This document shows positions 13,817 through 24,613 of a stretch of DNA of 64,000 nucleotides, piece by piece. Source of the DNA: Candidatus Dormiibacterota bacterium (GTDB taxonomy: Bacteria; Chloroflexota; Dormibacteria; Aeolococcales; Aeolococcaceae); assembly GCA_963718525.1 (NCBI GenBank), contig OY970355.1, forward strand, positions 3,104,001 through 3,168,000. Reading direction: 5' to 3'. The position numbers and the translations under genes were made by a program. Each line of letters starts with the position of its first letter. The first letter of the stretch is position 1. The notes beneath the pieces were generated by a model. The model searched no databases. It was not told where the DNA came from and saw only the letters and a list, made by a program, of their open reading frames with translations.

Positions 13817-13858
13817 ACTGGGAGTGTATCTACCTGTACCTAACGATGGGCGTCTATC

Positions 13859-13875
13859 TGATATTGTCGCTATCA
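13859..13875. promoter_or_regulatory. Island motif TGATAT-N5-CTATCA
   Basis: TGATATtgtcgCTATCA immediately before the hemerythrin ATG. Confidence 0.65.
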
Positions 13876-13876
13876 A

Positions 13877-14392
13877 ATGAGCACCACCCGCGTCACCGAT
13901 GTCATCCGAATGGACCACGTGTGGTTCCGCAATCAGTTCACCGCGCTCGGTGACGCGCGCGGCGATGTTGCGCGACTGACTTCGATCTGGGCCGCGCTGT
14001 CAACTCGCCTGGAGGTGCATGCGGCGGCCGAGGAGACGCTCTTCTACCCGCGGTTGCTCAAGGACGACCCCGATGCGGTCGATGACACCAAGGATGCGGT
14101 GAGAGACCACAACGAGATCCGAGACGCGATACGCAACGCCGAGGGGCACAGCGTCGGGGACGATCGATGGTGGCACGCGGTCAACGACACCGAGAAGGCC
14201 AACGACGAGCACATGGACGAGGAAGAACAAGGTCCGCTGCTCGAGTTCGACGATGCTGCGTCCACCGCCGAGCAGGCTGAGCTCGCGTCCGCATTCACGG
14301 CGTTTGAAGCAGAGCATGCAGGGGCTCGGGGTATAGCGGTAGTTGACAAGGACCCGGACGAGTACGTCGAGGAGATCATCGACGAGAGCTGA
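13877..14392 (+). CDS. Hemerythrin/HHE cation-binding protein
   Basis: DH...VHAAAEETLFYP...DHNEI...EHMDEEE. Confidence 0.88.
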   Translation: MSTTRVTDVIRMDHVWFRNQFTALGDARGDVARLTSIWAALSTRLEVHAAAEETLFYPRLLKDDPDAVDDTKDAVRDHNEIRDAIRNAEGHSVGDDRWWHAVNDTEKANDEHMDEEEQGPLLEFDDAASTAEQAELASAFTAFEAEHAGARGIAVVDKDPDEYVEEIIDES

Positions 14393-14413
14393 TCCGGTAC
14401 GACGACGACACAG

Positions 14414-14468
14414 CCGTATAGCTTGTCTGGCAGCTAAGTTGACACGACTGGTGCCGGGTCACTAAGCT
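14414..14468 (+). promoter_or_regulatory. Promoter of candidate sRNA A
   Basis: CCGTATAGC-N16-TTGACA(14439-44)-N18-TAAGCT(14463-68); same layout as the promoter at 23487-23541. Confidence 0.65.
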
Positions 14469-14473
14469 CCTGA

Positions 14474-14562
14474 GGTCGACGGTCGAGAGGTCGTCGTCCC
14501 CACCCCCTCCCAACGAGTCCACCCCGCCGGGATCAAGGTCCACGGCGCGGGTGGACTCTTCG
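14474..14562 (+). ncRNA. Candidate sRNA A (hairpin, C-rich anti-SD tract, terminator hairpin)
   Basis: CGACGGTC-GAGA-GGTCGTCG stem, CCCCACCCCCTCCC, GAGTCCACC...GGTGGACTC stem; paralog at 23393-23480. Confidence 0.6.
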
Positions 14563-14571
14563 GTTTCGCGG

Positions 14572-15765
14572 TCAGGCGAGTGGGAGGACGACGGTGAACG
14601 TGCTCCCGCCACCCGGGGTCGCGGTGACCGCGATGTCGCCCCCGTGGAGCCGAGCGGTCTCACGGGCCAGGTAGAGGCCGAGGCCGGTCCCGCGAATGTG
14701 GCTGGTTTCAGGCGTCACCAGGCGGCCGAACCGGCTGAAAAGCAGATGCGCCTGCTCGGCGTTGATGCCGATCCCGTGGTCGCGAACGACGATGCTCATG
14801 GCTCTGCCGTCATCTTCGCAGCCGATCTCGATCGTCCCACCCGCAGGCGAGTATTTGATCGCGTTGTCGATGAGGTTGGTCAACATGGTGGTGAGGCGGC
14901 GGCGGTCGGCGACAACGGCCACCGAGTCGCGCTGCGTGGTCACAGCGAACCGGTGCTCTTCGCTCATCAGCGGACGCATCGACTGCACGGCATCCTCAAT
15001 GACCCTGAGCAGGTCCAGGGGTTCGAGCTCGAGCTCGAGTCCGAGGGTCTCGAGCCGGGCGGTTTCAAGCATGTCTGAGATCAGTCGCGCCATCTCTTCG
15101 GCCTTCTCGGTGATGCGGCTGAGCGCCACGCGTCGCTCTGCAGGAGGCAACACCCCCTCGCCGAGCATCGATGAGTACCCCCTGATGATTCCGAGAGGGC
15201 TTCGAAGCTCATGCGCGGCGATGTTCAGGAACTCGCTCTTGAGCCGCTCGAGGCGCCGGCTGCGTTCGGCCTCCTGGAGCAGCTCGTCGGCCATCGCGGC
15301 CTGGCTGACTCCGTGACCAACGATGCCGGCAAGCGACTGCAACGTGCCGCGAGCATCGGCGCTGAGTCGGCCCTCGCCGCTGACGACGAGGAGCGCGGCG
15401 ACTCTCTCGTCGCCCCGCACCGGCACGATGACGGCGGGCGGGTCGTCGACAGTCAGGCCCGACGAGATCGCTCGGTCGAATGCAGGGTGGTCGCTGACGC
15501 GATAGGGCCCGCGAGCACTCGGCTCGACGAGGTCCGATGCCGCGACGCACGCCAGAAAATCGCCGCGGAGCAGGAGTAGCCAGGCTTGGCGGGAAATTCC
15601 AGGGGCGGATGCCAGCCGTGAGGCGAGCCTGACCGCTTCGCGGAAGAGCCGGCGCGACGCGTCATCCTGGGTGCCGGGGTCATCCGTAATGGGCGCCGGG
15701 TCCTGCACGGCGGCGAGCGCCTGCTTCAGCTTGCGGTTGGGAGCGAGGCGCGATCGCTCGTTCAA
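14572..15765 (-). CDS. GAF-domain sensor histidine kinase (cytoplasmic)
   Basis: AAHELRSPL H-box, NLIDNAIKYS, DHGIGI, GTGLGLY; start codon uncertain. Confidence 0.9.
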   Translation of the reverse strand: MNERSRLAPNRKLKQALAAVQDPAPITDDPGTQDDASRRLFREAVRLASRLASAPGISRQAWLLLLRGDFLACVAASDLVEPSARGPYRVSDHPAFDRAISSGLTVDDPPAVIVPVRGDERVAALLVVSGEGRLSADARGTLQSLAGIVGHGVSQAAMADELLQEAERSRRLERLKSEFLNIAAHELRSPLGIIRGYSSMLGEGVLPPAERRVALSRITEKAEEMARLISDMLETARLETLGLELELEPLDLLRVIEDAVQSMRPLMSEEHRFAVTTQRDSVAVVADRRRLTTMLTNLIDNAIKYSPAGGTIEIGCEDDGRAMSIVVRDHGIGINAEQAHLLFSRFGRLVTPETSHIRGTGLGLYLARETARLHGGDIAVTATPGGGSTFTVVLPLA

Positions 15766-16123
15766 CGCTCTCGGCGAGCTGCGCCGGAGTGGTGTCGGCC
15801 TTGACCAGGAACTCGAGCGCGCCTAGCTTCATGCCTCGTTCTCGGAGCTCGGGTTCGCCGTAGTTGGTGAGGATGATCACCGGGATGTGCATGGTCTCGG
15901 GGGCCGAGCGAAGGCTCTCCAGCACTTCGAATCCATCGAGGCCCGGGAGACGGAGATCGAGGTAGATGAAGTCCGGAGCTTCGTCTGCGGCCAAGCGCAG
16001 GCCTTCCTTGCCATCGCGACCAATCACCACCGAATAGCCGTCGGCGACAAGTCGCAGCCGATACATCTCCGCTGCGGCGACGTCGTCCTCAATCAGCAGG
16101 ACCTTGACGTCATCCTCCAGCAC
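15680..16123 (-). CDS. Single-domain response regulator (receiver)
   Basis: VLLIEDD, IYLDLRLP, ILTN, FLVKA; GTG after AAGGAGGAG. Confidence 0.9.
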   Translation of the reverse strand: MLEDDVKVLLIEDDVAAAEMYRLRLVADGYSVVIGRDGKEGLRLAADEAPDFIYLDLRLPGLDGFEVLESLRSAPETMHIPVIILTNYGEPELRERGMKLGALEFLVKADTTPAQLAESVERAIAPRSQPQAEAGARRRAGPGAHYG

Positions 16124-16290
16124 GTGCTCCTCCTTGGCCGTTGCAATTGGTCGCTCCCTCGGCAAATGCTACCTCCGCCTCTCGGTACGGTACCAGACAC
16201 AAAGCGCCCGTATTCACCGCACGGGTGTAGGCCCGAGGCCCTGGGACGCCACCGAGGGGCGTCCACCCCGCCGAACGCCAACCGCAGCGA

Positions 16291-16452
16291 TCAGCGAACG
16301 ACGATGCCCACTCCGAAGACGATGGTCCACGCCACGGCAAGGAAGAGTGCCATGCCGGTCACCAGGCTGCGTACGTCCAGCCTCCGACGACGCCGCAATG
16401 CGCGCAGGCGGATTCGAGGGGCAACCACCTCGTCCCGCCTTGGGGAAAGCAT
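16291..16452 (-). CDS. Small single-TM peptide (53 aa)
   Basis: Hand translation MLSPRRDEVVAPRIRLRALRRRRRLDVRSLVTGMALFLAVAWTIVFGVGIVVR*; below the ORF-track cutoff. Confidence 0.5.
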   Translation of the reverse strand: MLSPRRDEVVAPRIRLRALRRRRRLDVRSLVTGMALFLAVAWTIVFGVGIVVR

Positions 16453-16468
16453 CTCGGTCACCGCGCAA

Positions 16469-16504
16469 TGATAGCAATATCGCCGCTATCATGTTTTGTG
16501 ATAG
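16469..16504. promoter_or_regulatory. Island motif, perfect CTATCA-N7-TGATAG plus an extra half-site
   Basis: TGATAG 16469-74; CTATCAtgttttgTGATAG 16486-16504. Confidence 0.75.
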
Positions 16505-16561
16505 GATGTTCCTGCGGGGAGGACGAGGGACAGTCGCGACAATCAATTGGAGGTACGCGGT

Positions 16562-16765
16562 ATGGCTCGTAAGTACAAGCCGATACAGCTCGATGTGAAG
16601 CCGGTGGCCGGCGCCTATCTGAACGAGGCAGCCACGTGCCCGCAATGCAGCTCGCGCATCACCGAGGTGCTGGGCCGCATGGGTCTGCGGCTCGTCTTCC
16701 GCTGTGATCGGTGCCGGGTGCAGTTCTTCCGCCAGCGTGCCATCACCAGCGCAGGCCTGGTGTAA
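16562..16765 (+). CDS. Small Zn-ribbon protein, copy 1
   Basis: CPQC...CDRC; GGAGG RBS; paralog of 20829..21035. Confidence 0.8.
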   Translation: MARKYKPIQLDVKPVAGAYLNEAATCPQCSSRITEVLGRMGLRLVFRCDRCRVQFFRQRAITSAGLV

Positions 16766-16882
16766 ATCTCCGAGTGCCGCGGCGATTGACGTATAGAATC
16801 GCTGGGATGCTGGTAACGCGCAGAGCTTCCCTACTGGCCGTCCGTGGCCGTCAGCTCCCACGCATCACATTCGGTCGGTCGA

Positions 16883-17227
16883 ATGCCGGCTGAAACGGTG
16901 GTTCCCACGTCGGAGCGCATGCTCGATCTCGACAAGCCGCTCTACACCATCAGCGTCGCTGCCGAGATCCTCGCAAGCCATCCGCGGACGCTGATGATGT
17001 ACGAGACCATGGGTCTCGGCGTGCCGGACCGCACCGCGACCAATCGGCGGCGGTACTCGCAGCGCGACATCCTCACGCTCAGCGCCATCCAGCGGCTCAC
17101 CAGGCAATCCGGGCTGAACATCGCAGGCGCGCGCTACGTCATCAAATGCCTGCAACTCCTCGACGCGCACGGCATCCCTCGGCCGCCGGAGCTCGCCGGG
17201 ATTGACATCGAGCACGTTCGGCTCTGA
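16883..17227 (+). CDS. MerR-family (HspR-like) regulator, copy 1
   Basis: PLYTISVAAEILASHPRTLMMYE...RTATNRRRYSQRDI...GLNIAG. Confidence 0.88.
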   Translation: MPAETVVPTSERMLDLDKPLYTISVAAEILASHPRTLMMYETMGLGVPDRTATNRRRYSQRDILTLSAIQRLTRQSGLNIAGARYVIKCLQLLDAHGIPRPPELAGIDIEHVRL

Positions 17228-19034
17228 TCTGCAGCCGCATCCGCCGGAGACCACGTTCGCCGGGTCGATCGAAGCGGACCTGGTCTCGCGTGGCGATCCC
17301 CACCAGATCATGGGGAGCCTGGTTCGTTTCGCGGCAGAGAACATCGATGTGGACCGCTGCACGCTCACCAGCCTGGACCAGGACGTCCTGCGGGTCGAGG
17401 CCAGCTACCAGCGCGGCGGCCCACCGGACTTCGTCGGGCACGAATACCCGCTGACCTGGCTGGCGAGGCAGCCATTGCTCCAGCAGGCGGTGGAGACCGG
17501 GTCGATCGTCCTCGGTGGCAGCCTCGGTCATGGTGGCAACGCCGATCCCGATCTCATCCCCGCATTGATTGCAATGCACCACACGGCCATCGTCCCGCTG
17601 TCCATCGGCGAGACGGTCGGCGCGGTGCTCATCCTCAGCCGGAGCAGCGACCGCCCATTCGTCCCCCACGAGCTGGCGGGTCTCCAGGAGGTCGGGCTCC
17701 TCGCGATCCTGGCCCTCCGCAACGCGCGCCTCGTCGAGCAAGTGCAGAGTGCGCAGAGTCGCGGCCTGGACTCCCTGACGCAGATGTCGCGCCACGTTGC
17801 CTCCAGCGTCGATCCGGCGACCTTCTTCGACAAGATGAGCGACACGATCGCTGGACTCGTCGGCGCGGAACGCGCGGGCTTCTGGCAGCTGACCGGGACG
17901 CAACTTGTGCCGATGCACCAGACGCCACCCAGCCCCGGCGACTCGCTGGACGCGCCGGAACGCCGCGTTCTCGATTCCGAAGGGGACCAGGACCTCGAGA
18001 AACTCCTGTTCTCGGGTCAGGCCCTGCGACACAGTGATGGTGACGCTGGCGCAGCGCGTGCGGATTCGCTGCTCACGCGGCTCGGGGCTCGAGACGTGCT
18101 CGCGGTTCCGTGGCGAACAGCCGCGGTTCCGCTGGGGATCCTGGCAGCCAGCAACTCCCAGTCGGGTTTCACCGATCAGGACGAATGGGTCATGCGTCTC
18201 GCCGCCCGCGCCTCTGCGCTCGTCTGGCAGGGCTATGCGGCGGAGCAGCGCGCCCAGGGGCTCCAGACGACCGAGTTGGACCGCCTCGAGGCACACGCAC
18301 ACCGCATGGCCGATCTCGAGCGCCAGAAATCAGAGTTCCTGCAACTGGCATCACACGAGCTCCGTGCACCGATCACCCTTGTGAGCGGCTACCTGTCGAT
18401 GCTCGAGGAGGGATCGCTCGGCGAGCTGCCCGAGCCAGCCGCGAAGGTTGTGCCGCTGATGACGGCGAGGATGCGGCATATGAGCCAACTCGTCGACCGC
18501 ATGTTGACGGCAAGCCGGATGGAGAATCGTGCTCGCGGCCAGAACGCCAAGGACGTCAGCGTTGCCGCGCTCGCGCGGGCCGTTGCGGCTTCGGCCGCGC
18601 ACTCGCCCGACGGCAGCTCACCCAGGGCAGTCCGCGTCAAGTCGGAGGGACGGGTCCGAATGCGTGTGGACCCGGAGCAGGTCGAGACGATCCTCGGCAA
18701 TCTCGTATCCAATGCGATCAAGTACTCCGCCGACGGCAGCGACGTGACAATCACCATTCGCGAGGAGCCGAGATGGGTGGCCGTCGAGGTCTCAGACCAC
18801 GGTGAGGGCATCCCCGAAGAAGACCTGCCAAAGCTGTTTCAGCCGTTCGGCCGGCTCTCGAAGGCGCTCGCCGCCGGCATCCCGGGCACGGGTCTCGGTC
18901 TGCACCTATCTCGCGGCTTGGCCCAAACCCTGGGCGGGGACATCGAGGTCACCTCTCGTCCGGGCGAAGGGAGTACATTCACGCTGCGCCTGCCGCGCGG
19001 ACGCAAAGGGCCAGCGGGGAGAATCCATGCCTGA
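17202..19034 (+). CDS. Dual-GAF sensor histidine kinase (cytoplasmic)
   Basis: Two GAF-like regions, ASHELRAPI, NLVSNAIKYS, DHGEGI, GTGLGL; start uncertain. Confidence 0.9.
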   Translation: MTSSTFGSDLQPHPPETTFAGSIEADLVSRGDPHQIMGSLVRFAAENIDVDRCTLTSLDQDVLRVEASYQRGGPPDFVGHEYPLTWLARQPLLQQAVETGSIVLGGSLGHGGNADPDLIPALIAMHHTAIVPLSIGETVGAVLILSRSSDRPFVPHELAGLQEVGLLAILALRNARLVEQVQSAQSRGLDSLTQMSRHVASSVDPATFFDKMSDTIAGLVGAERAGFWQLTGTQLVPMHQTPPSPGDSLDAPERRVLDSEGDQDLEKLLFSGQALRHSDGDAGAARADSLLTRLGARDVLAVPWRTAAVPLGILAASNSQSGFTDQDEWVMRLAARASALVWQGYAAEQRAQGLQTTELDRLEAHAHRMADLERQKSEFLQLASHELRAPITLVSGYLSMLEEGSLGELPEPAAKVVPLMTARMRHMSQLVDRMLTASRMENRARGQNAKDVSVAALARAVAASAAHSPDGSSPRAVRVKSEGRVRMRVDPEQVETILGNLVSNAIKYSADGSDVTITIREEPRWVAVEVSDHGEGIPEEDLPKLFQPFGRLSKALAAGIPGTGLGLHLSRGLAQTLGGDIEVTSRPGEGSTFTLRLPRGRKGPAGRIHA

Positions 19035-19410
19035 TGGGTCACATGCGATACGGCTGTTGCTCGTCGACGACGATGCCGACGTCGCCAGCATGTACGAGCT
19101 GCAGCTGTCTGCTCACGGCTTCGACGTCATCAGGGCTAATTCCGGCAAGGAGGCCATTGATCGTGCCAGCACCGAGGCTCCTGATCTGATCTACCTCGAC
19201 CTCGGATTGCCGGAGATGCACGGGCTCGACGTCCTCAAGGAGTTGCGCTTGGATGCGCAGACGGCCGATATCCCAGTGGTCATCCTCACCAACTACAGCG
19301 AACCCGAGCTGATGGAGCGTGGCCGCCAGCTCGGAGCGCACGATTTTCTGATCAAAGCCCACACGCCGCCCGCCGCCCTCGCGGAAGCCACCCGAAGGTG
19401 GGTCTCGTGA
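19027..19410 (+). CDS. Single-domain response regulator
   Basis: LLLVDDD, IYLDLGLP, ILTNYSEPEL, FLIKA. Confidence 0.9.
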   Translation: MPDGSHAIRLLLVDDDADVASMYELQLSAHGFDVIRANSGKEAIDRASTEAPDLIYLDLGLPEMHGLDVLKELRLDAQTADIPVVILTNYSEPELMERGRQLGAHDFLIKAHTPPAALAEATRRWVS

Positions 19411-19769
19411 CTGATTCGACGTCTCCGGAGGATTCGGAGGCAGAACCCGATCACCAGGAGGCTCGAGAGGCAGCGCTCGATGCCGTGGAGCCGGTGCGCC
19501 TGCTTGAGGGCGAGGACGAGGACACCATGTATGTCGATGATGCCGTGCACTGGACGAAGGTGTACGCCGAGCTCCTTGACTTCAAGGCGAGCCTGCTGAC
19601 CGTTGCCGAGCATCGGCTGCCATCGATGGATGACGATGCCGAATCGGAGGTCAGGGAGACCGACCTCAAGGTGCTCAAGGCCGAGGCGGCTCGATTCGAG
19701 CGTCGCCTGGAGTTCTGGCGCGAGCGCGCTCGCGAGCTCAAGGCAGGCTCCGTTACCGATCCTCAATAA
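19407..19769 (+). CDS. Hypothetical acidic helical protein
   Basis: GTG overlaps the receiver stop; RLLEGED...HWTKVYAELLDFK...RRLEFW. Confidence 0.7.
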   Translation: MTDSTSPEDSEAEPDHQEAREAALDAVEPVRLLEGEDEDTMYVDDAVHWTKVYAELLDFKASLLTVAEHRLPSMDDDAESEVRETDLKVLKAEAARFERRLEFWRERARELKAGSVTDPQ

Positions 19770-19930
19770 ATCCAGGGGCGGCGGTTGCGCCACGTCACCG
19801 GGCGTCAACGCACGTATCGCAAACCATCTCATGGCGTCTCCGGCGTGACGCCGGTAGCGTCTGATTAGCCACGGGCGCCGGCGAACGAGGGTGGCCGCGT
19901 CCAGAGAGTGGGACTTGGAGGATTGGTGCC

Positions 19931-20680
19931 GTGCTGACTGTGGAGACTCCGCGAAAGGACACGAGCGCGCTCCGGCGCCTCGGTGCATTGCCCGCGACAG
20001 CGCTGTTCCGCCGCCGTGAGCAGGTCGCCCCGACGCCTCCTCCAGCATCGGGCATCGCCTGCACGATGCGTGGTTGCAGCAACGACACTGCCCAGCTATG
20101 TGCGTACCGTGATCGTCGCGACCGCTCCTGCACGGCCACGATCTGCCGTGCTCACGCGATCTCGCTTGGCGGCCGAACGTATTGCCGCCGGCACGCCGGC
20201 ACCGTGCAGGCGATCGGTGATCTGGCTCGGGACCAGAGTGCACACCCCGACGTCGACGACAGAGCTCCGTCGCTCGTGGACTGGATCGGCCGCGACATCG
20301 ACAGGGGCATCCGGACTCTGCTGGCGCGCGCCGCGCGCCCGGGCGAAAGCGTCATCGCCGATGAGGCTGCCCGGCTCGCCCACGACTTCCGCCGCAATGC
20401 CCGGTGGGAGCGGAGCTGGCGACTGATCGAGAGCACCGGCCCGATCCTCAACGTGACGCTGCACGTTGCGCAGGATGACGACTCGCTCGTGCACGTCAGG
20501 GTGGGAACCGAGGCGGTCGCGGACGGCGTACCTCCATGGATCGCCCGGCGCCGTGACGGGCAGGACGTCGAGGCAGCCATCGATATCTCCCAGCGACGGC
20601 TCTTCTACCGGTACCTCGAGGAGACGATCTCCGAGGCGGTGGCCCGGTTCCGCGACCGCTCCGATCGTATCGCCCAGTAG
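19931..20680 (+). CDS. Hypothetical protein with N-terminal Cys/His (B-box/AN1-like) metal finger
   Basis: CTMRGC, CAY, CTATICRAH, YCRRH; GGAGG upstream. Confidence 0.7.
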   Translation: MLTVETPRKDTSALRRLGALPATALFRRREQVAPTPPPASGIACTMRGCSNDTAQLCAYRDRRDRSCTATICRAHAISLGGRTYCRRHAGTVQAIGDLARDQSAHPDVDDRAPSLVDWIGRDIDRGIRTLLARAARPGESVIADEAARLAHDFRRNARWERSWRLIESTGPILNVTLHVAQDDDSLVHVRVGTEAVADGVPPWIARRRDGQDVEAAIDISQRRLFYRYLEETISEAVARFRDRSDRIAQ

Positions 20681-20742
20681 GAGCGGCGGCGGGGGTCACC
20701 GCCCCTCGAACGCGAACGCCCCACCATGGCTGGAGCGTAGTG

Positions 20743-20772
20743 TGGTAGTATTACTATCATCTTTTCTGATAG
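20743..20772. promoter_or_regulatory. Island motif TGGTAG-N5-CTATCA-N7-TGATAG
   Basis: TGGTAGtattaCTATCAtcttttcTGATAG upstream of Zn-ribbon copy 2. Confidence 0.75.
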
Positions 20773-20828
20773 CTTGTAGCCGACTCTTGCGCACGGTCGC
20801 CGGAGCGGTGCAGTCCGGAGGTAGCGCG

Positions 20829-21035
20829 TTGCCACGTAGATACAAGCCGGTCCATCTCGACGCAAAACCGGTCCCCGAGGCATGGCTGCAAGAGTTGGCA
20901 ACCTGCCCCCAGTGCGATTCCCGGCTGACCGAGGTGCTGGGGCGCATGGGCCTGCGTCTGCTGTTCCGCTGTGCGCAGTGCCGGGTCCGATTCTTCCGCC
21001 ACCCCAAGCCCACCGCAAGCGCGAGGTTCGTCTAG
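20829..21035 (+). CDS. Small Zn-ribbon protein, copy 2
   Basis: TTG after GGAGG; ATCPQC.SR.TEVLGRMGLRL.FRC..CRV.FFR shared with copy 1. Confidence 0.8.
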   Translation: MPRRYKPVHLDAKPVPEAWLQELATCPQCDSRLTEVLGRMGLRLLFRCAQCRVRFFRHPKPTASARFV

Positions 21036-21036
21036 C

Positions 21037-21381
21037 TCAGACCTTCACGTGCTCGACGTCGATCTCTGTCAGTTCGGCGGGACGCGGGACCCCATGCGCA
21101 TCGAGCAGCTGGAGACAGAGGATCAGGTAACGGGCGCTGATCAGATTGAGCCCGTATCCGCGAGTGAGTCGCTGAATCGCGCCAAGGGTGATGATGTCGC
21201 GCTGCGAGTACAGTCGACGGTTGCTGGCAGTCCGGCTGGGGACGACCAGGCCGAGATGCTCGTACATCATGAGCGTCCGCGTATGCGTGGCAAGGATTTC
21301 CGCCGTGATGCCGATCGTGTACAGGGGCTTGTCGAGGTTCAACATCTTGACCTCGCTGGTCGGAGCTGCCGCGCGTGTCAT
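21037..21381 (-). CDS. MerR-family (HspR-like) regulator, copy 2
   Basis: 114 aa, close paralog of 16883..17227 (LDKPLYTI, RTLMMYE, YSQRDI, CLQLLDAHG.PRP). Confidence 0.88.
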   Translation of the reverse strand: MTRAAAPTSEVKMLNLDKPLYTIGITAEILATHTRTLMMYEHLGLVVPSRTASNRRLYSQRDIITLGAIQRLTRGYGLNLISARYLILCLQLLDAHGVPRPAELTEIDVEHVKV

Positions 21382-21401
21382 CTGTGACGACGAATCCGCA
21401 A

Positions 21402-22376
21402 CTACGCTGCGCGACGCCTGGCGTGCACGCGCAGGCGCACCACCGATCCCATCTCGCGCGACGAGCGCAGTTGCACGAGATCACAGAGCTGGTTGGCGGT
21501 CCAGAGGCCGCGTGCCCGAGTAGGATCCGCACCCGGCTGCTGCCGGTCGACAAGCGGGTCGCTGATCACGCCACGATCGGAGATCTCGCATACAACATCG
21601 CCATCGTCGAACCAGATCCGCGCGACGCCGCTCCCGGCGCCGTGGGTGACGCTGTTGGTTGCGACTTCGCTGACCGCGAGAATGAGGTCGTCAAGCCGTG
21701 CGGCGGAAAGCCCGGCGCGGGCGCCCTGAGTCGCGACCAGCGCGCGCAGTTCTCCGAGCGTGGCCGCTGTGAAGGACATCTCGGCGACGACCGTGGCGGG
21801 AGGCGCGAACGGCGATGAACGCGGAGCGCTTGGAGCCTGAAACTCCTCGCGACCACCGTCGCGTTCCGCCGAGACGGCCCCGCGGCTGTTGCCGATCACG
21901 GGGTGCGTCGTCCGCGCACCCTTGATGACTTCTGGATCGAGACCGGCGACGTCATATGGGCAGATCAGCCAGAAGCCTTGCACGCCGGCAAACGCCCGGT
22001 TGATGAGGGCCTCGTGCCACTGGCATTCCTCGAGGTGGACAGCAGAGCGACCAGGCCAGATCGGCTCGCCGACTCCGCGCATCCGCACGGCACCGGAGTG
22101 AGCGCCCGCGACAGCGAATTCATCCCACGCTGGAATGATCCGCGCGGGGTTCGCCCCGACGATCCGCATGTCGCGATATTCGACGAGCCCATCGTCGACG
22201 CCGCCGACACGCGCGCGGAGCGCGTCGATCTTGGGACCGCTGACCATCACCAGAGTCGGGTCCCCGGCGGCGATGCCATCGGTGATGAACTGCGCGACGT
22301 TTTCGACGAACTCGCTCTCATCTCTGTAGAAAACGGCCTCGTGGCGGAAGTCCGCGATGCTCGTGTTGCTGCTCAC
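21402..22376 (-). CDS. MEDS sensor + HATPase anti-sigma factor (RsbA/RsbW-like)
   Basis: FRHEAVFY, GVGEP, WLICPYD (MEDS); AVSEVATNSVTHG, ISDRG, RGLW (HATPase_c_2). Confidence 0.9.
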   Translation of the reverse strand: MSSNTSIADFRHEAVFYRDESEFVENVAQFITDGIAAGDPTLVMVSGPKIDALRARVGGVDDGLVEYRDMRIVGANPARIIPAWDEFAVAGAHSGAVRMRGVGEPIWPGRSAVHLEECQWHEALINRAFAGVQGFWLICPYDVAGLDPEVIKGARTTHPVIGNSRGAVSAERDGGREEFQAPSAPRSSPFAPPATVVAEMSFTAATLGELRALVATQGARAGLSAARLDDLILAVSEVATNSVTHGAGSGVARIWFDDGDVVCEISDRGVISDPLVDRQQPGADPTRARGLWTANQLCDLVQLRSSREMGSVVRLRVHARRRAA

Positions 22377-23326
22377 CTCGCTCCCCCAGCTCCGGTGTCG
22401 GCTGGGGCTGCAGATGCGTTTCGCACGAGCCCGGCAGCGCTCATCGCTCGCTGAAGACGCGGCTGGATGCCGCGCAGCGTCACGTGTCCCGCAGCCTCGG
22501 CCGCGACGAGCATGCGCAGGCCGGCGACCGAGCAGAAGGTGACCGCGGAGAGATCGATGGTGACCGCAGGGTGGCTGCCCGTGGCGTTCTCGATCGCTTC
22601 GCCCAGCGCATCGATGTTCGCCTCGTCGATGCTTCCCACCAGACTCAGATTCGGGCCGTGGGAGTGCGAGATCAGCAACCCTGCGGTCGCCACGACATCA
22701 CCCTCATGCGCTCCCCCGAAACCCTCGGGTCGGAGGATCGAATCTTCGTCCGCCGACGGCAGGTCGAGGCGCGAGCTGTGCTGCCATTCGCCGAGCACGT
22801 GCGCGGCGCGCGCCGTGAGATCGATCGGTGAGTAGCCGATGTCGGCGATCCGATCCGCATACTTTGTGATGAACGCGCTGAACTCCGCCACAAACTCACG
22901 GACCACCGCCGCGAGCGCGGCTCGTGCTGCGCGATCATCCGCTGGGGCCGCGAGCGCGGCCGCCTTGGCAGTGATCAATTGCCTGAGCGAATCCGGGTAG
23001 AGCCGCTCGAACTCGGCGTTGAGCGTCCGCAGCACCTCGATCCGTCCCGGTCCCATCATCGCTAGCCAGCGCATCCTCTCGAGGTCGGAACCGAGTGCGC
23101 AGCGCGGGTAGAACTGATTCGTGGCGAGCTCGCCAACCATGAGATGTGCGCACGCGACATGCGTTCCGAGCGGCTTTCCATAGGAGGTGGCCGCGATGAA
23201 CTGCGCACGTTGAAACGCGGGGCAGTCGGGGCTCAAACTGTCGAAGCTAGGACCGAAACGGCACCGATCTCGTGGCTCCTGGTCCTTCGATGTGCGTGCC
23301 ATCTGGCGCTTGGAAAGAATGGCCAT
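22373..23326 (-). CDS. Cys-rich N-terminal domain + STAS (anti-anti-sigma) domain
   Basis: C-terminal LVGSID...IDLSAVTFCSVAGLRML (phospho-Ser motif); N-terminal CRF, CPAF, CAHL, RCALG. Confidence 0.78.
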   Translation of the reverse strand: MAILSKRQMARTSKDQEPRDRCRFGPSFDSLSPDCPAFQRAQFIAATSYGKPLGTHVACAHLMVGELATNQFYPRCALGSDLERMRWLAMMGPGRIEVLRTLNAEFERLYPDSLRQLITAKAAALAAPADDRAARAALAAVVREFVAEFSAFITKYADRIADIGYSPIDLTARAAHVLGEWQHSSRLDLPSADEDSILRPEGFGGAHEGDVVATAGLLISHSHGPNLSLVGSIDEANIDALGEAIENATGSHPAVTIDLSAVTFCSVAGLRMLVAAEAAGHVTLRGIQPRLQRAMSAAGLVRNASAAPADTGAGGAR

Positions 23327-23392
23327 CGAGCCAGCTCAGGCCGGCACGCGGTCGATCATGATAGTGAGTGTATACCGTGCGGCCAGCCGCCG

Positions 23393-23480
23393 AGAAGAGC
23401 TACCACCCCGGCCGGGGATGACCCCCGGCAGGGTGGGCTTTGGGGAGGGAAATTCGAATGCCGGTGGAATAATCCACCCA
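23393..23480 (-). ncRNA. Candidate sRNA B (paralog of A)
   Basis: Minus strand: GGTGGA-TTAT-TCCACC stem, TTTCCCTCCCCAAAG, CCACCCTGCCGGGG...CCCCGGCCGGGGTGG stem, CTCTTC tail. Confidence 0.6.
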
Positions 23481-23486
23481 GAGGTG

Positions 23487-23541
23487 ACTCTATCAGCCTG
23501 GTAGACCTGCTGTCAAGCAAACTTATAACATGGCTATACGG
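23487..23541 (-). promoter_or_regulatory. Promoter of candidate sRNA B overlapped by the island motif
   Basis: Minus strand CCGTATAGC-N16-TTGACA-N18-TAGAGT; TGGTAG-N5-CTGTCA 23499-23515 and CTATCA 23490-95 overlap it. Confidence 0.65.
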
Positions 23542-23571
23542 ATAGTGATCTCGCCAGGTTCGCGCACGAGG

Positions 23572-23937
23572 CTAGGCATCACGGAGATGCACAGCTGCCT
23601 CCTCCGCGGGAGGCTCGTCGTCGACGTCGACACCGAGTGGGTCGGGCTCGGCGAGGGCGACACCGTCCTCTCCGGTCTCACCGTCGATCAATTCGGCTCG
23701 CTCCGGAAGGTTTGTTTCGACCGCTGAATCGGGTTCCTCCTCGGCGAGCCGCTCGTCGAGGGTCTCGCGGACGTCAGGATCGACGATGCGGCGCGCCGCG
23801 AGGTCCCGGGCGTCGGTCTCATCGCCGACCACCTCGGCTGGGTCCGGTTCGACGGCACCAGGGATCAATGCGTCGTCGTCCGGCACGTCGTTCGATGGCA
23901 GGTCTTCCGGGTGGGGGCCGGGGTTGTTCGAACTCAT
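23572..23937 (-). CDS. Acidic DUF5709-like protein
   Basis: ETLDERLAEEEPD and PAEEAAVH motifs. Confidence 0.7.
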   Translation of the reverse strand: MSSNNPGPHPEDLPSNDVPDDDALIPGAVEPDPAEVVGDETDARDLAARRIVDPDVRETLDERLAEEEPDSAVETNLPERAELIDGETGEDGVALAEPDPLGVDVDDEPPAEEAAVHLRDA

Positions 23938-24041
23938 GGTGCTATGCAATCAGATCCATACGTGCCGGCGGGCCGTGCCGTCCGCCGGGGCCTCTTCAAT
24001 CAGGCTGCCACGCTGATACTCGCGCTCTATTCACATCCTTC

Positions 24042-24060
24042 CTATCAGTTTCGCTGATAA
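24042..24060. promoter_or_regulatory. Island motif CTATCA-N7-TGATAA
   Basis: CTATCAgtttcgcTGATAA, 7 bp before the receiver start. Confidence 0.7.
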
Positions 24061-24067
24061 TAGCTTT

Positions 24068-24475
24068 GTGGACGACGACGTGAAGGTCCTGTTGATCGAG
24101 GACGACGCGGCTGCCGCCGAAATGTACCGGCTTCGGCTGGCCGCTGACGGCTACACAATCGTCATCGCGCGAGATGGCGAGGAAGGGTTGCGGATGGCCT
24201 CGGAAAACTCACCCGACTTCATCTATCTCGACCTGCGTCTGCCCGGGCTCGATGGCTTCGAGGTCCTCGAGCGGCTCAGGGGGGATCCGGCCACGACACA
24301 CATCCCGGTCATCATCCTCAGCAACTACGGCGAGCCGGAGTTGCGCGAGCGAGGCCTGAAGCTCGGAGCGCTGGAGTTCCTGGTCAAGGCGGACACGACA
24401 CCAGCGCAGCTGTCCACAAAGGTCGGGCAGTCCCGCGAGCCGCACGCGATCCCCTCGGGAGACGCGCCCCGCTGA
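24068..24475 (+). CDS. Single-domain response regulator (close paralog of 15680..16123)
   Basis: DDVKVLLIEDD.AAAEMYRLRL.ADGY, IYLDLRLPGLDGFEVLE, FLVKADTTPAQL. Confidence 0.92.
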   Translation: MDDDVKVLLIEDDAAAAEMYRLRLAADGYTIVIARDGEEGLRMASENSPDFIYLDLRLPGLDGFEVLERLRGDPATTHIPVIILSNYGEPELRERGLKLGALEFLVKADTTPAQLSTKVGQSREPHAIPSGDAPR

Positions 24476-24491
24476 GGGTCTCCGTGTTGTG

Positions 24492-24522
24492 CCGGCGGCT
24501 GCCCCGGAGAGCCAGCCGCCGG
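24492..24522. terminator. GC-rich hairpin between convergent genes
   Basis: CCGGCGGCTG...CAGCCGCCGG. Confidence 0.55.
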
Positions 24523-24613
24523 ACTTCACGCCCCGTGCTTCAAACGGTGGGATCGGATATCGCTCCTATCCAAGTTCATGATAGTGCTGCTGTACTGTTC
24601 GCCGCAACAAGCG

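Follow-up and report, generated by a model that had tools for sequence, protein, structure and literature searches.

Two candidate C-rich small RNAs bracket a conserved signalling island in a genus of uncultured Candidatus Dormibacterota

Organization of the locus

The window, a 64,000-nt stretch of a 3.34-Mb, single-contig Candidatus Dormibacterota genome with a GC content of 66%, contains a dense island of sensor and regulator genes, whose families were assigned with Pfam. A plus-strand hemerythrin gene (13877-14392) is followed by minus-strand genes for a histidine kinase (14572-15765) and a receiver protein (15680-16165), a Zn-ribbon protein gene with a probable start at ATG 16563, a MerR-type regulator (16844-17227) and a GAF-GAF kinase (17202-19034). 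Beyond these stand unk249 (19931-20680, plus), which encodes a 249-aa protein without a Pfam match, and, on the minus strand, a second MerR-type regulator (21037-21381), a MEDS protein with an anti-sigma-type kinase (21402-22376) and a 317-aa protein with a C-terminal STAS domain (22373-23326; Pfam STAS_2, E 2.6e-11). A 125-aa ORF with no assigned family (23572-23949, minus) and a further receiver protein gene (24068-24475, plus) complete the region. Two predicted small RNA (sRNA) genes, A and B, face each other from the two sides of this island.

Two genes of the island have distinctive 5′ regions. The Zn-ribbon ORF is listed from TTG 16547 (16547-16765), and ATG 16563, eight nt past GGAGG (uuGGAGGuac), is the likelier start; orthologs in two genomes keep cTGGAGGTAC ahead of the ATG. 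The unk249 family gives 4-9 matches at E up to 1e-20 per genus genome, and in five species the island copy has a near-identical 5′ region, cgagggtggccgcgtcggagagtgggacyTGGAGG; such near-identity of this 45-nt upstream region is unusual for non-coding sequence.

Anatomy of copy B

Copy B lies on the minus strand within 23541-23393 and carries a near-consensus promoter, TTGACA-N18-TGn-TAGAGT. The element CCGTATAGC (23541-23533) is separated by 16 nt from the -35 hexamer TTGACA (23516-23511), which is followed by an 18-nt spacer with a conserved TACCAG that ends in TGA, and by the -10 hexamer TAGAGT (23492-23487), where the preceding TG forms an extended -10. This promoter (23487-23516), the best sigma-70-like match between 13000 and 25000 with 10 of 12 positions and the TG, retains its TTGACA-N18-TAnnnT layout in homologs. 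The upstream motif, GTATAGCCATGTTATAAGTT (23520-23539, minus; 20.6 bits in a PWM scan of the genome), is a quasi-palindrome with the core ATAG-N5-CTAT, common to other island promoters. It ends 3 nt before the -35 hexamer, with its CTATMAG core 5 nt before, and occupies the identical position in 26 B-type loci.

The predicted transcript is ~88 nt long (23393-23480, minus), its start placed ~7 nt past the -10 and its end beyond the 3′ stem. In the predicted fold it has three parts: a 5′ hairpin, GGUGGA-UUAU-UCCACC (23463-23478); an unpaired stretch, GAAUUUCCCUCCCCAAAG (23438-23455), which is near-invariant in homologs and is the putative seed, with an anti-Shine-Dalgarno-like (anti-SD-like) CCUCC core; and a GC-rich, terminator-like 3′ stem-loop (23399-23438). 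The motif UUUCCCUCCCCAA is found within the unpaired stretch (23455-23438). The 3′ stem-loop pairs CCACCCUGCCGGGG with CCCCGGCCGGGGUGG, is written out as GCCCACCCUGCCGGGGG-UCAU-CCCCGGCCGGGGUGG..GC, has no conserved U-tail and leads into the tail CUCUUCU. The covariance model R1 matches copy B at window positions 23393-23484 with 81.3 bits and E 7e-15, E-values of home-built covariance models being rough. The fold has an energy of -44.3 kcal/mol (z -2.9), and 0 of 200 dinucleotide shuffles are as good. Promoter, 5′ hairpin, C-rich stretch and 3′ stem, the anatomy proposed in an earlier note on this DNA, are all present on the minus strand at this place; the terminal CTCTTC that the note also described is present in copy B and is not conserved among B homologs.

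A paralog with the same layout

Copy A, on the plus strand, matches copy B element by element, as had been proposed. Its promoter region (14414-14468) reads CCGTATAGC-N16-TTGACA-N18-TAAGCT, with the upstream motif, the -35 hexamer at 14439-14444, the same 18-nt spacer length and the -10 hexamer at 14463-14468; the spacing equals that of copy B, and the promoter is kept in 17 further A-type loci. The predicted sRNA A (14475-14568; R1 match at window positions 14481-14564, 43 bits) comprises a 5′ hairpin, CGACGGUC-GAGA-GGUCGUCG (14477-14496), an unpaired stretch, UCCCCACCCCCUCCCAAC (14497-14514), and a 3′ stem-loop, GAGUCCACCCCGCCGGGAUC...GGUCCACGGCGCGGGUGGACUC (14515-14558), with the tail UUCGGUUUC. 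Its fold has an energy of -51.5 kcal/mol (z -3.6), equalled by 1 of 200 dinucleotide shuffles.

The window has the composite pattern CCGTATAGC-N16-TTGACA at two places, both of them exact matches, versus 0.02 matches expected. Across the 3.34-Mb genome, exact matches are confined to copies A and B, and a search allowing up to two mismatches gives 5 matches versus 4 in the reversed control. With the layout found in place, the composite pattern so far above expectation and both folds better than shuffled sequence, the original observation is confirmed. Model R1 finds exactly two copies in the genome (81 and 43 bits). A search for RNA runs covering 13900-23800 found none, and the two runs that match there yielded metagenome contigs; a joint in one contig between 16119 and 23449 probably reflects a short TCCACCCCGCCG similarity near 16262 and not a third copy.

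Copy A is followed by the convergent minus-strand kinase gene (14572-15765), so that, as the earlier note had it, no gene lies downstream in its own direction. This arrangement, which is conserved, puts the kinase stop (14572) ~14 nt beyond the 3′ stem of A, and the stem scores on the opposite strand too. Copy A might accordingly serve as a cis-antisense partner or shared bidirectional terminator of the RR161-HK397 operon, with the stem of the family being primarily a terminator module. We regard this as very unlikely, since it leaves the conserved promoter, 5′ hairpin and C-rich stretch of A unexplained, and likewise copy B, which has no convergent gene.

Distribution and synteny

The R1 covariance model has matches in 35 of the 42 same-genus genomes, all uncultured Candidatus Dormibacterota; as these genomes are related to one another, the tallies do not represent independent events. 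A strong B-type copy (49-91 bits) is found in 30 of the 42 and only a more divergent B-like copy in five (G023, G049, G004, G054 and G019), while 7 of 42 yield no RNA at the filters used. A-type copies are present in 18 genomes, our own and 17 others. In 16 genomes A and B share one contig, where they lie 5.2-9.0 kb apart on opposite strands and converge. The earlier note had named a lack of further homologs as one of two findings that would tell against the RNA, and the 35 genomes remove that objection.

BLAST with copy B gives E < 1e-6 in 18 of 24 same-genus genomes, with the C-rich stretch and 3′ stem best kept; this set includes the unpublished G027, G032 and G036, on which no claim rests. 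Among the 16 genomes of the neighbouring family, nothing better than 1.6e-4 is found, and that match covers the stem only. The covariance model gives no accepted match in 150 other genomes of the phylum. One marginal match (G100, 34 bits) was rejected because its alignment lacks the CCUCCCC stretch. Within the genus, G001 and G045 carry the island marker gene and show no sRNA in the 6 kb examined, even with filters off. When named genomes were scanned for exact matches to the conserved core, 17 records came back, all of them MAGs of Candidatus Dormibacterota, Dormibacteraeota or Dormibacteria; an actinobacterial or Rubrobacter origin, which the GC content had suggested, was rejected on this result.

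Five other genomes (loci L120-L124) keep the synteny of the island between the two sRNAs, with the STAS/MEDS genes or the kinase lost in some. From one end to the other it runs receiver, B, (STAS, MEDS-kinase) MerR, unk249, (receiver) GAF-kinase MerR/Zn-ribbon, receiver, kinase, A, hemerythrin. A chance combination of promoter-like and hairpin sequences, or an element acting at the DNA level, is hardly credible as an account of a unit that is conserved as such in 35 of 42 genomes with structure-preserving substitutions.

Conservation of structure and accessibility of the C-rich stretch

Across 18 A-type sequences, the two-hairpin structure pairs 98.9% of cells, versus 36-56% in slid controls, and 4 pairs are changed on both sides and thus covary. 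The 5′ hairpin of B differs in sequence in all 34 homologs, yet at least 5 bp form in 30 of them, in agreement with the earlier statement that the 5′ stems pair despite their differing sequence; the mean z is -1.37 against mononucleotide shuffles, and the hairpin is absent from four divergent copies. A second model, R2, which derives from the A-type alignment A3, could align 11 of the 29 B loci. In these 11 sequences, 8 of 8 pairs of the 5′ helix are changed on both sides and 79.8% of cells pair, figures that lean toward structure because the alignment was fitted to it. Indels in the loops do not come in multiples of three, and the homologs keep no common ORF, which marks the RNA as non-coding.

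The 3′ stem of B shows a different pattern. In the close set of 20 sequences, none of its 14 pairs covaries, because the sequence of the stem is almost invariant; both arms are extremely conserved, and in most species no U-tail follows. Such conservation is what might be seen if the C-rich stretch and 3′ stem were recognised by a protein, for example a KH/S1-type protein that binds C-rich RNA, or by the ribosome, or if the RNA served to titrate G-rich RNA; the absence of a convincing mRNA target in the scans described below points the same way. We consider a protein-binding or sponge RNA unlikely. In the genomes of the synteny comparison, no candidate partner protein is consistently encoded beside the RNA, and distant B-like copies change the stem compensatorily, as judged by eye and uncounted. 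Moreover, base-pairing sRNAs of Hfq-less bacteria are as a rule laid out with a single-stranded C-run beside a terminator (PMC6486639).

The most conserved unpaired part of the RNA is GAAUUyCCCUCCCCAAAG in the B type and CCCCCACCCCCUCCCAACGAG in the A type, and CUCCCCAA with its flanks is near-invariant across homologs. The mean predicted unpaired probability of the C-rich hexamer is 0.77 in B (n=34) versus 0.45 for the whole RNA, and 0.88 in A (n=18) versus 0.40. In these models, CUCCCCAA would form the conserved, accessible seed of a trans-acting base-pairing sRNA, and the combination of a near-invariant C-rich stretch with a variable 5′ hairpin is typical of a seed.

A promoter motif shared with the island

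B-type promoters keep GCTATmAGyTTGC-TTGACA-N7-(T)TACCAG-N2-TGn-TAnnCT, and A-type promoters keep CTGTATAGCTTGnCTAGCAGCTAAnTTGACA...GGTAC...ACTAAGCT. Common to both is TATAG-N5-CTAnCAG, which ends 5 nt upstream of the -35 hexamer. A PWM that combines the 26 upstream sites with 21 from downstream of B finds 20 genome sites at 16 bits or more, versus 5 in the reversed control. The motif is a quasi-palindrome, (T/G)(G/T)ATA(G/C)-N5-CTAT(C/A)A, and several sites are palindromic (TGATAG-N5-CTATCA); a direct-repeat reading of the upstream motif was abandoned when several genome sites turned out to be palindromic.

PWM sites within the window lie at 13856/13859, just before the hemerythrin ATG (region 13856-13878), at 20743, 24576, 25963 and 44958/44961, and, around copy B, at 23356 before the STAS gene and at 23520 in the sRNA B promoter. 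Elsewhere in the genome they lie at 551173, 649473, 774710-777690, 946671, 978255 and 3226144. The motif adjoins the hemerythrin gene, the STAS gene and a divergent GAF kinase/AI-2E pair, and it is present at both sRNA promoters; its other neighbours in the genome are two PAP2 genes and genes for DJ-1/PfpI, DUF6582, a third MerR-type, PRC-barrel, MMPL and Nramp proteins. It probably marks a regulon of stress-like genes, to which the sRNAs, carrying it at their promoters, appear to belong. It may be either an operator or part of a leaderless core promoter.

Two further sites on the receiver side of the island deserve description. The receiver gene start GTG 24068 directly follows a perfect palindrome, TATCAG-TTTCG-CTGATA, and has no Shine-Dalgarno sequence (SD) (window 24037-24070, plus); the abutting palindrome and missing SD suggest a leaderless or operator-overlapped start. 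Between this gene and the converging AI-2E transporter gene lies an element (24489-24595, minus) in which a motif copy, GTACAGCAGCACTATCATGA, opens a 17-codon ORF, with a strong hairpin (24521-24489) coming next; the element may encode a small peptide or give rise to a further short transcript.

The gene downstream of copy B

The STAS gene begins at ATG 23326, ~70 nt after the stem of copy B, which agrees with the short distance reported earlier, and its ATG has no SD. Between stem and gene stands a second motif copy, GTATACACTCACTATCATGA (23375-23356, minus; 30.2 bits by PWM), which overlaps a 7-codon mini-ORF, MIDRVPA (ATG 23359-23357, TGA 23338-23336, minus), the whole element spanning 23336-23375. 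We parsed 26 of 30 B loci, with L048, L049, L058 and L065 missed by the regular expression. The second motif follows the stem by 45-110 nt in 21 of these 26. The gene after B encodes a STAS protein in 15 loci; 5 loci have one for a MerR-type regulator there, 4 have one for a small membrane protein, and one motif-bearing locus has no ORF of at least 60 aa listed downstream. Of the five parsed loci without the motif by this expression, four have the small membrane-protein gene and one (L061) has a motif variant.

In length, the mini-ORF is kept in 20 of 21 loci: it has exactly 7 codons in 19 as first read, L056 also has 7 codons when read from its ATG, and L057 has 13. Across these loci (L034-L062) the peptide is variable, every mini-ORF ends in TGA, and 7-13 nt separate it from the main start codon. 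The mini-ORF begins 17 nt into a GGTATAsACTC..CTATC motif, and the main start of the STAS or MerR-type gene has no SD. Since its ATG is preceded at 7 nt by a TANNNT hexamer, the mini-ORF may be a leaderless uORF, one that might hand ribosomes to the main gene. Judged from sequence, motif and mini-ORF are the downstream gene's own start signal, separate from sRNA B.

The proximity of the STAS gene had led the earlier note to consider a cis attenuator. In such a leader the 3′ stem would act as a conditional terminator or the C-rich stretch would mask the ribosome-binding site of the next gene. B always points to a downstream gene 30-130 nt away, and because its stem usually lacks a U-tail, read-through is plausible, at least in some lineages. 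In G002, G043, G057 and G053, moreover, an SD-led gene for a membrane protein of ~80 aa (MGIGAG...) starts 29-43 nt past the RNA with no intervening motif, and the divergent B-like copies of G049 and G019 are followed by similar MGIGVG starts led by GGAGG. However, the downstream gene is not constant among the STAS, MerR-type and membrane-protein classes, 21 of the 26 parsed loci have the separate motif and mini-ORF between RNA and gene, the folds show no alternative antiterminator pairing, and paralog A, with the same architecture, stands free of any downstream gene. A dedicated cis-attenuator is therefore unlikely, the proposal is weakened for copy B, and we rate a cis-acting leader of either kind as quite improbable.

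The own genome also contains a DUF6458-like homolog of the MGIGAGIVL... gene (that of L055, L063 and L064, in G002, G057 and G053, respectively) at 491613-491825, behind a motif-like TGATAGTATCGGTATC. This membrane-protein gene may be the ancestral neighbour of the B-like RNA.

Proposed function and target search

A trans-acting RNA remains our preferred reading. The promoter (-35, 18-nt spacer, TGn and TAnnnT) and the 3′ stem-loop are conserved, A is free-standing, and the U-tail of B is weak or absent. We infer transcription, RNA ends, base-pairing function and targets as follows: at a probability of roughly 0.55, copy B is an independently transcribed sRNA gene of ~90 nt whose product pairs in trans with G-rich ribosome-binding sites. 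A sigma-70-type promoter, flanked by the regulon motif common to protein genes of the island, would drive an RNA with a stabilising 5′ hairpin, an exposed CCCUCCCC(AAAG) and a GC-rich 3′ stem-loop that ends the transcript. The C-rich stretch would pair with the G-rich ribosome-binding sites of target mRNAs, block their translation or alter mRNA stability, and do so without Hfq, as in the C-rich sRNAs of Gram-positive bacteria.

The genome has the features that such pairing would call on. Its 16S rRNA 3′ end reads ...GGAUCACCUCCUUU / ...CACCUCCUUU, so that CCCUCCCC contains the CCUCC core of the anti-SD; this CCUCC-containing stretch, on which the earlier note's anti-SD reading turned, is conserved and predicted to be exposed, and the putative seed looks built to pair with ribosome-binding sites. 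Rough gene calls, with starts taken from a simple ORF/GC3 rule, give ~1,030 ORF starts with GGAGG 3-12 nt upstream (1,064 rows, 1,032 distinct), which together with the anti-SD 16S end indicates that the organism uses SD-led initiation. No Hfq gene was detected in the single-contig genome by a search to which control genomes responded, and this fits the chaperone-independent G-C pairing described for the 6C sRNA in PMC6486639.

Target scans among GGAGG-led ORF starts brought out no outstanding or conserved target; a k-mer search of the genome found no complement of at least 12 nt at a recognisable gene start, and the only full-length complement of the RNA is its own gene. Duplex energies of the island genes lie within the bulk of the genome-wide distribution, with unk249 at rank 179 of 1032. 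The Zn-ribbon gene, which the earlier note had offered as a target, forms a duplex of -12 to -18 kcal/mol, near the median of GGAGG-led genes and no better, and is not borne out. The own-genome homolog of the small membrane-protein gene, checked as a target, showed nothing outstanding.

Several island genes have no SD, namely those for hemerythrin, STAS, the receiver protein, the AI-2E transporter and the second GAF kinase, which speaks against the trans-pairing reading and also prompts a broader one: the two co-regulated, anti-SD-like sRNAs and the SD-less genes of the island, which appear leaderless or fed by the conserved 7-codon mini-ORF, would form one translational switch. We hold this to be highly improbable. 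If it were true, firing of the motif would yield abundant CCCUCCCC RNAs that occupy strong GGAGG sites genome-wide, the SD-independent messages of the regulon itself would escape, and translation capacity would pass to a stress or dormancy programme in a slow-growing soil phylum.

Comparison with known systems

The locus is a well-defined riboregulator pair, with comparative evidence and a promoter motif, set among STAS/kinase partner-switching genes, GAF kinases, MerR-type regulators and hemerythrin. Unusually, the two paralogs flank a conserved signalling island and carry the promoter motif found there. A literature search found no paper on regulatory RNAs of Candidatus Dormibacterota. The locus offers concrete sequences for heterologous reporter tests and for mining soil metatranscriptomes.

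Searches with Rfam 15 over the whole window returned 0 matches at gathering scores, including for 6C and RsaE/RoxS. At E up to 10, both loci matched only chance hairpin-shaped eukaryotic or unrelated models, with 10-17 bits against cut-offs of 38-97, and the 6C model gave no match at either locus.

Attenuators, too, have a short structured RNA behind a promoter, and a terminator-like stem ahead of a co-oriented gene. The present loci depart from this plan: the gene after B is not the same in all genomes and starts from a conserved module of its own, and paralog A lacks a gene in that position.

One close parallel is 6C (B11/Mcr) of Actinobacteria, which PMC6486639 describes as a short sRNA of high-GC, Hfq-less bacteria that exposes C-runs for G-rich mRNA, and which needs no chaperone because multiple G-C pairs formed by single-stranded regions are enough. 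The RNA described here would resemble it in these respects; it differs in having no sequence or structure homology to 6C and in its phylum, Dormibacterota. Whereas 6C displays its C-runs in the loops of two hairpins, the folds here place one single-stranded linker between hairpins, whose loops are UUAU/GAGA and GUCAU/UCAA.

Further parallels are RoxS/RsaE of Firmicutes and IsrR of staphylococci, which, according to PMC5419742, PMC9410917 and bioRxiv 10.1101/2023.02.17.528916, direct C-rich unpaired motifs against Shine-Dalgarno regions and take part in stress- or redox-linked regulation. The sensor-rich neighbourhood of the present pair, with hemerythrin, GAF kinases and the STAS/anti-sigma-type kinase genes, is similar in kind; the Rfam searches show no homology to RoxS/RsaE. 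RoxS/RsaE-type RNAs carry several separate C-rich motifs, whereas here each of two paralogous RNAs has one.

A new family of trans-acting C-rich ("anti-SD") sRNAs is the best reading of the pair; in their proposed action these RNAs would be analogous to 6C and RoxS/RsaE and not homologous to them. This suggests that the C-rich sRNA logic of Firmicutes and Actinobacteria is also present in a deep-branching, uncultured soil lineage.
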